A program made the translations under genes and the position numbers. Positions 14,948-19,268 of a stretch of DNA of 64,000 nt are shown one piece after another. The stretch is from assembly GCA_963715865.1 (NCBI GenBank), contig OY970280.1:1376001-1440000 (forward strand), written 5' to 3'. The notes under the pieces are model-generated. The model searched no databases. It was not told the DNA's origin and saw only the letters and a list, made by a program, of their open reading frames with translations. Every line of letters starts with the position of its first letter. Within the stretch, counting starts at the first letter, position 1. Origin of the DNA: Candidatus Bathyarchaeota archaeon. Its GTDB lineage: Archaea > Thermoproteota > Bathyarchaeia > Bathyarchaeales > Bathycorpusculaceae.

Positions 14948-15115
14948 CGTTCTTTTATGTTATAAACTCCTTAAAGGCTTTAGCACACTATAATATTTCG
15001 GACAACAGAGTATCAGCATTGACCCCAGTGTTTCTTATAGAAGCGTTTGTTGTAGGCATTATGCAGTCACAACTTCTAATAACCTCAAACAATGCTAATA
15101 ATTGAGGTTAAAACT

Positions 15116-15694
15116 ATGAAAATTGCTATTATAGGAAAAGGCAACGTTGGCAGCGCATTGTGCAGTGGCTTAAGCAGCAGGCATGAAGTAAAGTTTGGTC
15201 ACCGAGACCCAGCAGAACCAGTTGCTGATGTAGCAAAATGGGGAGAAGTAATTATTCTTGCAGTACCGCACAACAGTGCAAACGATGCCATAGAAGCCAT
15301 AAGACCTTTTGCGAACGGAAAAACAGTAATCGACGTAATCAACGCTATAGGACCAAATATGGAGTTAGGAATAAGCTGCACCACTTCCTCGGCGGAAGAA
15401 ACCCAGAAAAAACTTCCGCAAGCCCACGTAGTTAAAGCGTTCAACACAGTGTTCGCACAAAACCAAAGCACAGGCAAAGTCAGCAACGAACAATTAACAG
15501 CTTTCATCGCTGGCGACGATTTGAAAGCTAAACAAACTGCAGCTCAGTTAACACGCGGCATTGGTTTTGATCCCGTGGATTGTGGGCCATTAAAAGCAGC
15601 GCGTTATCTTGAAGCAATGGGAATAATGATAATCAACTTAGCCTACAATTACGGAATGGGAACAAAAATAGGCTATAAACTCGTAAAAGCCTAA
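15116..15694 (+). CDS. NADPH-dependent F420 reductase family oxidoreductase
   Basis: MKIAIIGKGNVG Rossmann motif, VIDVIN, VVKAFNT, IAGDD and DCGPL. Confidence 0.85.
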   Translation: MKIAIIGKGNVGSALCSGLSSRHEVKFGHRDPAEPVADVAKWGEVIILAVPHNSANDAIEAIRPFANGKTVIDVINAIGPNMELGISCTTSSAEETQKKLPQAHVVKAFNTVFAQNQSTGKVSNEQLTAFIAGDDLKAKQTAAQLTRGIGFDPVDCGPLKAARYLEAMGIMIINLAYNYGMGTKIGYKLVKA

Positions 15695-15806
15695 GTTCTT
15701 ACTTGCGTGCGCAATTTTGTTTGAAGGCAAGGTCATTTTTAAGGGAAAAGTTTAAGGGTAAATGTTTGTTATGGTTTCGCGTATTCCTATTGTTGAGGGG
15801 TTATGG

Positions 15807-16358
15807 TTGAGCGCTAAAATAGAAACAATCGAAGAACGCAAAGCAGAAGTCTTAATCAAACTAAGAAAATACAAACTACTCGAAAAAGAAAAATATGAAG
15901 GCGCAATCGGCTACATCATCGACATCCCGCAAGACAAAGAAAAAGCACTCGTCTGGTGCATCTTAGGCGAAGCAACCGTCGGCATCGCAGCCATGAACAC
16001 GCTATACAAAGTAATGAAAGAAAAAGACATCGACAGAACCATCGTAGTCACCGAAGGACGCTACACCCACGCCGTCAAACTAGGCGCCAAAAAGAAAAAA
16101 GTCGAACTACTACCCAAGTCTTTCCCAGTTTTCGACATTTTCGAGCACGCACTAGTACCATTCCACGAAATCCTAAGCGAAAAAGAAAAGACCCAGCTTC
16201 TCGCCCAATACAAAGTTAAGCCCTACCAGATACCACAGATAAAATCAGGCGACCCAGCAGTGAAAGCCATCGGCGCAAAACCAGGCGACGTACTGAAAAT
16301 CACAAGGAAAAGCTCAACCGCAGGCGAACACATCACTTACAGGTACGTAGTAGAATAA
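15807..16358 (+). CDS. rpo5: DNA-directed RNA polymerase subunit Rpo5/RpoH with a long RPB5-like N-terminal domain (~183 aa)
   Basis: C-terminal [10 protein letters not shown]...[32 protein letters not shown]...YRYVV is the Rpo5/RPB5 assembly domain; ~105 extra N-terminal aa; TTG start after GAGGGG. Confidence 0.93.
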
Positions 16359-16362
16359 AAAA

Positions 16363-16920
16363 TTATTTAGCAATTATGATTTCCGTCGACTTCACGATTG
16401 CTTCTACTTCATCGCCAACTTTAATATCTAAATCTTCAACTGCTTCCTTAGTTATAACTGCCGTCACAGTTACAGGCATTTTTACCTCAACCTTAACTTT
16501 GGCTGTAATAACGCCTTTCTCGACAGCTATTACTTTTCCTTTAAAACGGTTCCTTGCACTTAACTTCAAACCTTTCACCTCCAAACTTCCTGAATCCGAT
16601 AAGACCTTGCTTAAGTAGCTCTCAACTTGCTTATACTCGCCAAGCAAGCTTCTGCCTAAATCAGTTAACTTTGCGCCTCCTCCACCAGATTTTCCACCTT
16701 TATAAGTTTCCACTATTGGCTCTTCCAGCGCCTTTCGAATATCCTGCAGGTAATTCCAAACGTAACGGTAGGACATTCCTAAGGTTTCTGCAGCTTTAGA
16801 AATCGAATTTTCCTTGTCGATGGCTTCCAGAATTTCGGCTCCGCCTTTGCCTATTACTGGTTTATTTTTGTATTCTATCCAGACTTTGCATGAGAGCTTA
16901 TGTTTTTTGTTGGTAAGCAT
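16363..16920 (-). CDS. modE: ModE-family molybdate/tungstate-responsive regulator (wHTH + TOBE)
   Basis: GKGGAEILEAIDKENSISKAAETLGMSYRYVW, GGKSGGGGAKLT and C-terminal LSARNRFKG...TAVIT...AIVKST. Confidence 0.9.
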   Translation of the reverse strand: MLTNKKHKLSCKVWIEYKNKPVIGKGGAEILEAIDKENSISKAAETLGMSYRYVWNYLQDIRKALEEPIVETYKGGKSGGGGAKLTDLGRSLLGEYKQVESYLSKVLSDSGSLEVKGLKLSARNRFKGKVIAVEKGVITAKVKVEVKMPVTVTAVITKEAVEDLDIKVGDEVEAIVKSTEIIIAK

Positions 16921-16930
16921 TCTAGGATAT

Positions 16931-16954
16931 GGTTATGTCGCAAAGACCATATAA
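16931..16954. promoter_or_regulatory. Candidate weak ModE operator overlapping the modE TATA box
   Basis: Core TATG-N10-CATA with the same spacing as the tupA site; outer CG pairs not conserved. Confidence 0.35.
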
Positions 16955-16994
16955 AGCTAATCAAGATTAAATAAGCCAAATCGCATTCAGTTTA

Positions 16995-17402
16995 TTAAAG
17001 AGGAGTTCTTTTAATTTCTGCCACTTGATCGGCATCTTTGTCGTCGCTAATAATTGTTTTAATTTTTCTCTTGATCGCTGAAGCTATGTGTATGGAGTCA
17101 CGTGGACTAAGGTTATATTTGCTCATTAGCGCTTGAGCATGCCCTAAGATATTTTCGTCAACATTTATGAACTCCAAATTCGGGAAACCAAGCAGCTTTT
17201 GCCCCTGGTTTATGCCTTCGCTCTTACCCAATGTCTTGCTTACTACCCAAACGACTTCATCCCATGTTAATGTTGAAGTGCACCCTGACAGTTCTCCTTT
17301 TTCGATGCCAAGCAATATTTGTTTAGCTTTCTTTACCTTAGGTTCTACTTCCACTGTGTACAATATCGGATAAATGAAAACATTTGAATCAATGTATGGC
17401 AT
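16995..17402 (-). CDS. vapC: VapC PIN-domain toxin
   Basis: YIDSNVF, TWDEV, LSPRDSIHIASA and ISDDKD acidic PIN motifs. Confidence 0.9.
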   Translation of the reverse strand: MPYIDSNVFIYPILYTVEVEPKVKKAKQILLGIEKGELSGCTSTLTWDEVVWVVSKTLGKSEGINQGQKLLGFPNLEFINVDENILGHAQALMSKYNLSPRDSIHIASAIKRKIKTIISDDKDADQVAEIKRTPL

Positions 17403-17640
17403 TTCTTTGTTCAACTTCTTCAGCTATTAACTTTTTAATGTTTATTCGCTGTTTTAGTTTGGCGGAAGAAGTAGTTATGAAGTATTCAGTGTAACTGCCT
17501 CTAACTTGTGGTTTTTTTATAACTATTTCTTGATCTCGCATTTCAAGGGTTACTTCGACGCCGGGCTTTAACCCCATAGCGTCCCTCATACGTTTAGGAA
17601 TTACAACTTGCCCTTTTGGCCCAACATTTTTTATAGGCAT
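17389..17640 (-). CDS. vapB: AbrB/MazE-type antitoxin (VapB)
   Basis: VGPKGQVVIPKRMRDAMGLKPG; overlaps the vapC start. Confidence 0.9.
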   Translation of the reverse strand: MPIKNVGPKGQVVIPKRMRDAMGLKPGVEVTLEMRDQEIVIKKPQVRGSYTEYFITTSSAKLKQRINIKKLIAEEVEQRNAIH

Positions 17641-17752
17641 TGCTTTATTACCAATAATAATTAGTTATACCTTTTATTTATATTTTCCAACTATAAAGTT
17701 ATACTTTTCCAAGTTTCTAGATGCGGAGATCCGATGCAAGAGATTAATGTAA

Positions 17753-18469
17753 TTAAAACTCTAGTTCTCCGTTAACGAATTTGCGTGATATTTCACTTTT
17801 CGGATTCTCAAAGAAATTCTCCGTTTCAGCGACTTCCACTATTTCGCCGTTGTAGATGTGAACTATTTCATCTGCCATTCTTCTCGCCTGACTAAGATTA
17901 TGAGTAGCCATCACTATAATGCGCTCACCACTCTTTCTACTCACCATTGCCTTTTCAATAATACTTGCGCTGTTCGGATCCAAATTCGCTGTCGGCTCAT
18001 CCAAAAGCAAAACCTGCGAATCAAGCAAGAATGCTCTGGCTAAAGCGATTCTCTGCTGCTCGCCGCCTGAAGTCTTTTTTGCTCTTCGCTTCTCAAACCC
18101 TGAAAGCCTCACTGCCTGTAAAGCCTCATCGACTTTTTTTGCAATTTCCGCTTTTGGCACTCCCCTAATTCTGAGTCCATACGCCAAGTTATCGTAGACG
18201 TTGGTGCTGAACATTGCACTTTTCTGGAAAACCAATGTTGAAACTTGACGTAAAGCTTTACAATCAATATTTTGATTGTTAAATAACAGTTTTCCAGCGT
18301 CGGCGTTTTCTAAGCCAGCCATAATACGCATGAGTGTTGTTTTGCCTGCACCGTTAACGCCTAAAAGAACAATTATTTTGCCGCCTTGCATTTCTAGCGA
18401 TACTGAATTTAACGCTTTAACAGAACGGTAATTCTTTTTGATATCTACTAGTTGCAGATTAACGCTCAC
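17753..18469 (-). CDS. tupC: Tungstate-type ABC transporter ATP-binding protein (TupC-like)
   Basis: GVNGAGKTT, TSGGEQQRIALARA and LDEPTANLDP; in operon with TupB/TupA-like genes. Confidence 0.8.
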   Translation of the reverse strand: MSVNLQLVDIKKNYRSVKALNSVSLEMQGGKIIVLLGVNGAGKTTLMRIMAGLENADAGKLLFNNQNIDCKALRQVSTLVFQKSAMFSTNVYDNLAYGLRIRGVPKAEIAKKVDEALQAVRLSGFEKRRAKKTSGGEQQRIALARAFLLDSQVLLLDEPTANLDPNSASIIEKAMVSRKSGERIIVMATHNLSQARRMADEIVHIYNGEIVEVAETENFFENPKSEISRKFVNGELEF

Positions 18470-18473
18470 GGTT

Positions 18474-19220
18474 TTAACTCCCGCCTAAACCTCTCCAGAA
18501 CGACATTTTGTTCCATAACCCGTCTTCTTGCCTTACGCGCTCTATCAGGCTAATGGTTAATGCTAAAGCGATTACTATTGCCATAAGGATTATCGCATAT
18601 GCCATAGCGATGTCAAAGCTTCCGAAGTTTATTTCAAGAGCGATAGATGTGGTTAAAACTCGTGTTTCGCCTAATAGGTTTCCTCCTACGATTGTAGCAA
18701 TGCCGAGCTCCCCGAAACCTCTGTTAAAACCTGCCGTTACAGAAAGCACCATAGACGAAATTGTCTCGCGAATAAGGGTTAAATTAGTTCTAAAACCTGA
18801 AGCGCCAAGGGTTTTGGCTAAGTCTCTAAGTTGAGTGTCTGCTGCACCCAGAGCGTTTGCTGTAAAGCTGACTATTATTGGGGTAACCAGTATGGCTTGG
18901 CCGATTGCTATACCGTTAAGGGTGTAAAGCAGGTGGAAAGATCCGAATTCGCCTTGCCTAGATAAAAGCAAATACAAAATCAGTCCTAAGGCAACGGTTG
19001 GTACGCCTATTAACGCGTTAAAGAAGCCTTTGATAACCCATTTACCCCTAAAATTGTACAAGCCTAAAAATACAGCTATGGGGATACTCCACACGCATGC
19101 CAACAGTGTTCCTAAACCCGCAACGTATATTGTTCTGTAAACTGTTGCGTAAACTTCAGGATCACCGCTTGCGATTAGGTTAATTGCTTGCTGAAAGGCT
19201 TGAACGATAATATCAGCCAT
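18474..19220 (-). CDS. tupB: Tungstate-type ABC transporter permease (TupB-like)
   Basis: GVPTVALGL, GFNRGFGELG and GGNL...TRVLTTSIALE. Confidence 0.88.
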   Translation of the reverse strand: MADIIVQAFQQAINLIASGDPEVYATVYRTIYVAGLGTLLACVWSIPIAVFLGLYNFRGKWVIKGFFNALIGVPTVALGLILYLLLSRQGEFGSFHLLYTLNGIAIGQAILVTPIIVSFTANALGAADTQLRDLAKTLGASGFRTNLTLIRETISSMVLSVTAGFNRGFGELGIATIVGGNLLGETRVLTTSIALEINFGSFDIAMAYAIILMAIVIALALTISLIERVRQEDGLWNKMSFWRGLGGS

Positions 19221-19268
19221 GCATATCACAAAAGAAATAAGGGGAATTTTATTTGAGCTTTTCCTTAT

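Follow-up and report, generated by a model that had tools for sequence, protein, structure and literature searches.

A long Rpo5 of Bathyarchaeia pairs the RpoH assembly domain with an apparently inactivated Mrr-type domain resembling the jaw domain of eukaryotic Rpb5

Background

[quoted passage not shown] Steczkiewicz et al. classified Rpb5_N as a family of the PD-(D/E)xK nucleases with the distribution "Eukaryota" (PMC3424549). The archaeal counterpart, RpoH (Rpo5), has been described as devoid of an N-terminal extension (PMC3906176), and a survey of archaeal small subunits published in 2026 reports forms of Rpo6 in Bathyarchaeota and no long Rpo5 (PMC13257274). Our full-text literature search, with most subscription journals outside its coverage, found no description of a long archaeal Rpo5. 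Here we report the analysis of a long rpo5 (rpoH) gene in a stretch of 64,000 nucleotides from Candidatus Bathyarchaeota archaeon (assembly GCA_963715865.1, contig OY970280.1, positions 1,376,001-1,440,000), referred to as the window and providing the numbering used throughout. The product is very likely the organism's single, two-domain Rpo5, with a catalytically dead Mrr-type N-terminal domain (N-domain) that would take the position of the Rpb5 jaw and extend the lower jaw of the polymerase.

Results and discussion

A single, two-domain Rpo5

The gene and the parts of its product on which the argument depends are the following:

15807..16358, + strand: long form of rpo5/rpoH, 183 codons and a TAA stop, delimited by the open reading frame (ORF), the conserved TTG, the sole PF01191 match of the genome and the AlphaFold2 (AF2) model
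15807..16130, + strand: N-terminal domain, residues 1-108, inactivated Mrr-type PD-(D/E)xK fold, Rpb5-jaw-like
15864..15866, + strand: codon of R20, the invariant Arg of the N-terminal helix (Arg in 27 of 27 sequences)
15954..15962, + strand: codons of W50-C51-I52, the site of the Mrr catalytic Q-x-K in the combined alignment
16131..16349, + strand: Rpb5_C / RpoH assembly domain, residues 109-181 (PF01191, E-value 1e-29, model positions 1-73 of 73)

The C-terminal domain matches the full length of the Rpb5_C model with 102.6 bits (cut-off: 23.5) and the RpoH equivalog of NCBIfam (NF007129) with 106.9 bits (cut-off: 83). In the PDB, the sequences that match it best are the Rpo5 subunits of Pyrococcus and Thermococcus (E-value 1.2e-24), which rank above those of eukaryotes. 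In yeast, R200 and R212 of Rpb5 pair with Rpb1 by salt bridges (PMC1802627); according to the BLASTP alignment to RPB5 the equivalent positions are both Arg in the window protein, within the motifs ITRKS and YRYVV, and R179 is invariant in 27 of the 27 sequences compared.

The long gene is the sole Rpb5_C match in the genome, a single contig of 2.35 Mb with a completeness of 97.9%, and the search of this entire contig, combined with an inspection of the rpoB operon, revealed no second, short rpo5. The rpoB gene lies at genome position 1.4999 Mb, ~108 kb from the long rpo5, in the order DNA methylase, 78-aa ORF, rpoB (1121 aa), unsplit rpoA (1277 aa), L30e and NusA; the 78-aa ORF has no family match and there is no rpoH at the head of the operon. 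A preliminary description of this stretch, made from the sequence alone, had proposed a two-domain, Rpb5-style Rpo5 encoded outside the rpo operon and had suggested searching that operon for a second, short copy. The presence of both domains in one protein, its status as the only copy in a complete genome, the distance to rpoB and the lack of rpoH ahead of rpoB all agree with that proposal. On the strength of these searches, the long-form gene appears to be the organism's genuine polymerase subunit Rpo5, not a spare copy, and the protein is presumably incorporated into the polymerase.

An apparently dead nuclease fold under purifying selection

The best Pfam match of the N-domain is NA-iREase1 (PF22722; E-value 1.5e-7, 29.7-31.8 bits, cut-off: 27), a family of inactive restriction-endonuclease domains, and Mrr_cat (PF04471; E-value 1.5e-6, 26.7 to 28.7 bits, cut-off: 21) is matched as well. 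The NACHT domain with which NA-iREase1 is associated is absent from this protein, where the partner domain is Rpb5_C. AF2, run with an alignment of 27 sequences, yielded a full-length model with a mean predicted local distance difference test (pLDDT) value of 90.6 and a predicted template modelling (TM) score of 0.80; the model of the N-domain alone (pLDDT 90.8) exhibits the order alpha-beta-beta-beta-alpha-beta-alpha-beta.

In the combined alignment, Mrr proteins carry the motifs GGxD and QCK, and the window protein has W-C-I in place of QCK. The position of the catalytic Lys is occupied by other residues in all 27 Bathyarchaeia sequences and falls within V-F-F in eukaryotic Rpb5, while the Asp of the GGxD strand of Mrr is not conserved in the Bathyarchaeia N-domains. 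Judging from these substitutions, the N-domain is in all probability a catalytically dead nuclease fold. It is under the same purifying selection as the C-terminal domain, with a ratio of nonsynonymous to synonymous substitution rates (dN/dS) of 0.056 for the former and 0.052 for the latter (41 pairwise comparisons with relatives, all ungapped). The counterpart of the invariant R20 in eukaryotic Rpb5 is, according to the alignment, the Arg of the DRGY motif, which we take, by our own numbering of the yeast sequence, to be R26. The charge inversion rpb5-R26E is lethal in yeast (PMC1802627).

Relationship of the N-domain to the Rpb5 jaw and to Mrr nucleases

A BLASTP comparison with a metazoan RPB5 (P0271) gave one alignment, of residues 55-182 on 79-210, with 41% identity and an E-value of 2e-27; it runs across the domain junction over 132 residues with a single 4-residue gap, and phmmer likewise aligned the proteins in one piece. 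The profile of the N-domain aligns without gaps to RPB5 residues 58-117, and the ungapped match to human RPB5 given in the preliminary description is thereby upheld. Searched against the PDB, the N-only profile matched RPB5 N-domains exclusively (9mu7_E: 6.4e-6; Arabidopsis: 9.5e-4; human: 1.7e-3), with every chain other than RPB5 at an E-value of at least 1. Foldseek, also proposed in the preliminary description, placed eukaryotic RPB5 chains at the top for the full-length AF2 model, as its 32 best matches (~200 columns, TMq 0.79-0.80). In the opposite direction, a jaw profile built from eukaryotic sequences only and run in six frames against 151 Bathyarchaeia genomes reported 11 matches at E≤0.01, 10 of them inside long rpo5 genes, among which the gene of a congener, 92% identical to that of the window, scored 1.4e-3.

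Comparison of profiles by hhalign linked the Bathyarchaeia N-domain to other archaeal Rpo5-linked N-domains (score: 166.7) and to the eukaryotic N-domain (score: 51.6, probability 95.6%, P-value 1.2e-8, 61 columns), and gave a probability of 93.5% with one RPB5. The other archaeal N-domains aligned to the eukaryotic one with a score of 61.3 over 90 columns, including helix 1, and the eukaryotic N-domain aligned to Mrr with 41.5 over 43 columns. All profiles on the eukaryotic side are weak because the reference set is narrow (metazoan RPB5 and one divergent protein with three repeats, P0197). The scores suggest that the archaeal Rpo5 domains, and not Mrr, are the nearer of the two to the eukaryotic jaw, while they themselves are nearer to Mrr than to the jaw, a pattern expected of an intermediate.

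Several results weigh against the jaw assignment. The protein has no match to PF03871 (Rpb5_N) even at E≤10, although this search, which the preliminary description had recommended, is partly blind, because the model covers approximately residues 5-90 of Rpb5 and the best-conserved stretch aligns to residues 58-117. The hhalign score of the Bathyarchaeia N-domain with Mrr (122.1) is far above that with the eukaryotic jaw, but it is inflated, as the Mrr set was picked by its likeness to the archaeal profile. Many Mrr proteins match the N-domain at 1e-8 in a library of 1.8 billion proteins, and the eukaryote-only jaw profile found no match at E≤1 in the window genome's own gene. In structural comparisons of the N-domain alone, the VIA-align Z-scores are tied at 10.2-10.3 for the Mrr-like AF1548 (1y88), EndoMS (5gkj_B) and human RPB5 (7vba_E, model residues 2-108 on chain residues 4-136), and Foldseek reported the same mixture of Mrr-like and RPB5 matches; the predicted structure of this domain by itself thus does not separate Rpb5_N from Mrr-like nucleases. 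Nor is the predicted orientation of the two domains independent evidence, because AF2 was trained on Rpb5. On the other hand, the labels "Mrr-type" and "Rpb5-jaw-like" are compatible, because Rpb5_N is itself a PD-(D/E)xK fold (PMC3424549).

In a tree of N-domains (95 rows, 112 columns) the Mrr, eukaryotic and archaeal sequences leave one node on separate stems, with a very long branch (2.14) for the eukaryotes; this topology is compatible with one fusion or two, because each group sits on its own stem. In the tree of C-terminal domains (79 columns) the long forms are not nested among the short forms of Bathyarchaeia, on branches without support, and the eukaryotes stand apart on a starred branch; it is compatible with a fusion after relocation of the gene or with transfer from another archaeal lineage. 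The preliminary description would have abandoned the jaw in favour of Mrr nucleases if the N-domain grouped with them: Pfam and hhalign do favour Mrr, the structural comparison is tied, and the tree gives a three-way node. Its proposal of a full-length RPB5 in this lineage stands as far as homology and colinearity with the jaw are concerned, both of which are detectable at the sequence level, while orthology of the fusion is likely and can only be inferred. We regard a single origin of the archaeal and eukaryotic Rpo5-linked N-domains as modestly favoured.

Distribution and operon position

The query with the N-domain found a match in 111 of 201 sampled Bathyarchaeia genomes, and one of these 111 matches stands alone in a protein in which no Rpb5_C domain was detected. 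The presence of the domain is nearly all-or-none per family (27/27, 41/43, 7/7 and 5/5 versus 0/14, 0/22 and 0/9), and in over 100 genomes from throughout the class the long form is a single stop-free frame. The 80 genome records of close relatives are assigned to Bathyarchaeota/Bathyarchaeia, including Bathycorpusculum, save a few with other labels. An rpo5 with 86-87% identity to that of the window also appears on contigs filed as Methanocella sp. and Candidatus Sulfotelmatobacter, which are probably mis-binned.

In a sample of the entire phylum, among the matches listed (147 of 300 Rpb5_C matches), ORFs of at least 180 aa occur in Bathyarchaeia only, and those of other classes measure 80-148 aa. 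A long form in Korarchaeum, mentioned in the preliminary description, found no support, as no ORF outside Bathyarchaeia exceeds 148 aa among these 147. In the same sample, the N-domain profile matched outside Bathyarchaeia in only two genomes, G271 (E-value 9.1e-13, ORF of 214 aa) and G341 (1.1e-7, 426 aa).

At the loci of short-form Bathyarchaeia, rpoH is positioned 27-55 bp 5' of rpoB in seven of seven cases, versus none of 131 long-form loci with rpoB within the fetched flanks of 1.5-6 kb. As the long form and the operon position are mutually exclusive, the long rpo5 appears to have replaced the operon-borne rpoH in Bathyarchaeia.

In a library of representative proteins, 1285 match the N-domain at E≤1e-3. 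Among the best 150 of them, 27 are proteins of 170-300 aa with an N-terminal N-domain and Rpb5_C, about 20 of which are divergent from those of Bathyarchaeia. The same best 150 include four longer Rpb5_C proteins of 378-481 aa with additional upstream sequence: P0158 (481 aa) has two Mrr_cat stretches upstream of Rpb5_C, P0197 (456 aa) has three Rpb5_N repeats of the eukaryotic sequence type, and P0188 (436 aa) and P0209 (378 aa) have long N-terminal extensions upstream of Rpb5_C.

Some Bathyarchaeia genomes contain additional related genes. In five of them (G008, G026, G067, G075 and G141), N-domain matches in ORFs of 160-200 aa indicate two or three long rpo5-like genes per genome, and the first three also have multiple Rpb5_C matches; paralogy, a mixture of strains or contamination may account for these. 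The genome analyzed here encodes a paralogue outside the window (genome positions 494895-495446, + strand), a protein of 183 aa with an N-terminal dead Mrr-like domain (N-domain profile: 1.8e-13), which is 22% identical to Rpo5 and possesses a similar P-P-F-D motif at the junction. Its C-terminal part is Cys-rich and has no Pfam match. The gene lies between eIF-1A with a zinc-ribbon ORF on one side and L35Ae on the other, and its distribution in Bathyarchaeia is patchy (18 of 121 genomes at E≤1e-8).

Gene model, translation start and expression

The coding region is a single ORF that extends from stop to stop over 15762-16358 (+ strand, 198 aa), and the TTG codon at 15807, in frame with it, yields the 183-aa product. 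Among 112 relatives, 80 have TTG and 6 have GTG at the aligned codon; the sequence TGAGG 6-9 nt 5' of this codon is conserved as well, and at 27 of the 112 loci the codon is the only in-frame start after the upstream stop. This conservation suggests that the TTG at 15807 is likely the true translation start. The position of the start and the ~105 additional N-terminal residues given in the preliminary description are in accord with these data and with the beginning of Rpb5_C at residue 109. Two elements upstream of the gene were read from the sequence, the second of which (a TFB recognition element, BRE, with a TATA box) is putative:

15795..15800, + strand: Shine-Dalgarno-like (SD) GAGGGG, 6 nt 5' of the TTG
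15745..15756, + strand: possible BRE/TATA, GAAAAG TTTAAG

Small contigs from RNA libraries (metatranscriptomes) of two studies cover 15807-16037 and 16099-16249 and neither of the flanking genes. They are weak evidence of transcription of the long rpo5, because they give no strand or start and carry-over of DNA is possible.

Alternative explanations

The gene model might be an annotation artefact, with the N-terminal part untranslated or belonging to a separate gene and a short RpoH as the real product. Database entries of the long form do differ in length (183, 195, 198 and 199 aa), as gene callers disagree on the start; however, the frame is free of stops in more than 100 genomes, the dN/dS of the N-terminal part is that of a constrained protein (0.056), the conserved TTG and its SD mark the first residue of the N-domain, no SD is seen at any potential internal start (Met, Val or Leu) before residue 109, and AF2 folds the whole as a confident two-domain protein, which leaves this explanation a negligible probability. 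It is hardly more credible that the N-domain is an active nuclease, serving restriction or defence and tethered to the polymerase: the Mrr_cat match above the cut-off would fit, but the Q/E-x-K site reads W-C-I, Lys is missing there in 27 of 27 sequences, the GGxD Asp is not conserved and the best Pfam family consists of inactive restriction-endonuclease domains. Horizontal transfer of an Rpb5 gene from a eukaryote or a giant virus into Bathyarchaeia would agree with the location outside the operon and with the nearest clusters of the ESM Atlas, which are labelled Nucleocytoviricota (one of them at TM 0.98, with the phylum known for only 3 members). Against it, the C-terminal domain is typically archaeal, its PDB matches to Pyrococcus and Thermococcus (1e-24) ranking above those to eukaryotes, which occupy a separate starred branch of its tree; the N-domain has diverged less from Mrr than its eukaryotic counterpart, contrary to a transfer from eukaryote to archaeon; no relative emerged when viral contigs were scanned with the family alignment; and each of the 80 genome records belongs to Bathyarchaeia or is a mis-binned contig. 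We consider such a transfer very improbable.

A Mrr-like domain could have joined an archaeal Rpo5 independently, the likeness to the jaw then reflecting nothing but shared Mrr ancestry. Such a history is suggested by the hhalign scores of the archaeal N-domain (122 with Mrr, 52 with the eukaryotic N-domain), by the Pfam matches to Mrr_cat and NA-iREase1 instead of PF03871, by the three-way junction of the N-domain tree, which allows two origins, and by the patchy distribution, the domain occurring in roughly every second Bathyarchaeia genome sampled and the listed matches of other Thermoproteota including no long ORF; the paralogue with a dead Mrr-like domain and without Rpb5_C in the same genome implies that such domains were at hand. 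Yet the domain order and the junction spacing are the same as in eukaryotes, the BLASTP alignment spans the boundary, the same catalytic residues are lost in both, the eukaryotic N profile favours archaeal Rpo5 N-domains over Mrr in hhalign as well as in the scans of whole genomes, and the score of 122 is inflated by the choice of the Mrr set. An independent fusion thus seems possible but doubtful. We incline slightly to the view that the eukaryotic jaw descends from an archaeal two-domain Rpo5, formed by fusion of a dead Mrr domain with RpoH and moved out of the rpoH-B-A operon, and that the Bathyarchaeia protein, evolving slowly, has persisted from this ancestral form as a sequence intermediate between Mrr and Rpb5_N. 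All in all, the long Rpo5 is a real, conserved two-domain Rpo5 of Rpb5-style architecture that likely shares common descent with the eukaryotic jaw.

Proposed role and implications

As Rpo5, the protein would use its C-terminal ~75 residues, the universal archaeal/eukaryotic assembly domain, to anchor the subunit on the largest subunit, Rpo1. The N-terminal 105 residues, predicted to adopt a Mrr-type fold minus the catalytic residues with jaw-like order, spacing and orientation, may lengthen the lower jaw where the DNA cleft ends downstream and there offer a non-catalytic surface for downstream DNA or transcription factors. Incorporation into the polymerase, position on the enzyme and role are what we infer, the latter two from Pol II. 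If this assignment is correct, one more "eukaryotic" elaboration of transcription moves back into archaea, and a sequence intermediate links Rpb5_N to the Mrr nucleases. The long and short forms, natural alternatives within one class, would also make the function of the jaw simple to study. The two forms, whose genes lie at different loci, may not be orthologous in the strict sense, which bears on Rpb5_C as a marker; the domain is in use as such in phylogenomics (PMC7554672).

Genomic neighborhood

The gene stands alone between an upstream F420_oxidored-like gene (15092-15694, + strand) and a downstream gene of ModE-like composition (HTH_1+TOBE, 16363-16920, - strand), in line with the oxidoreductase and modE neighbours named in the preliminary description. 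The region 16363-19229 (- strand) begins with this ModE-like regulator, followed on the same strand by a gene for a PIN-domain protein (16995-17414), both identified by Pfam. A small gene at 17389-17640 (- strand) is AbrB/SpoVT-like by eye and probably forms a toxin-antitoxin pair with the PIN gene. The remainder, 17753-19229 (- strand), encodes, also by eye, an ABC ATPase and a permease, which may make up a molybdate or tungstate uptake unit with the ModE-like gene.

Comparison with known systems

The closest architecture is that of eukaryotic Rpb5/RPABC1 (PF03871 and PF01191; 1dzf, 8uhd_E, 7vba_E, 9mu7_E), which has the same order of two domains and whose N-domain is likewise a PD-(D/E)xK fold without catalytic residues; both proteins share the Arg of helix 1, the VGI motif and the T-x-S/A-A-K motif. 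The N-domain is shorter in the window protein (~105 aa versus ~140), with less of the initial helical elaboration, and in contrast to eukaryotic Rpb5 the protein has no PF03871 match, a sequence much nearer to Mrr and an archaeal-type C-terminal domain. The host has a single polymerase, whereas eukaryotes have three.

To canonical archaeal RpoH (8cro_H, 4qiw_H, 7ok0_H) the C-terminal domain is 54-63% identical, with a root mean square deviation (rmsd) of 1.2-1.5 Å, and the mode of binding to Rpo1 is presumably the same. Canonical RpoH, however, comprises 75-85 aa without an N-domain and its gene heads rpoH-rpoB-rpoA, while the window gene is monocistronic and located elsewhere. Mrr endonucleases (PF04471; AF1548, 1y88) have the fold of the N-domain (Z-score 10.3, rmsd 2.6 Å over 99 residues) and share with it the RGY-like helix, the VG turn and the FT..A motifs; unlike them, the N-domain lacks the catalytic D...QxK and any DNA-recognition or winged-helix partner, and is fused to a polymerase subunit.

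The Rpb5 homologues of nucleocytoplasmic large DNA viruses (NCLDV), such as that of African swine fever virus (8q3b_E), also have two domains (176-228 aa), but they are 12-19% identical, viral and of the eukaryote-like sequence type. Clusters in the ESM Atlas combine Rpb5_C with Rpb5_N or Mrr_cat, at TM 0.80-0.86 to the window model; the label of the cluster at TM 0.98 ("Viruses 67%, Nucleocytoviricota", from 3 members) is probably an artefact of automatic taxonomy. In Sulfolobales, Rpo13 is located next to the Rpo5 N-terminus, in contact with downstream DNA (PMC13257274, PMC3479171). It occupies the place predicted for the N-domain, of which it would be a functional analogue only, being an unrelated, small, helical and separate subunit.

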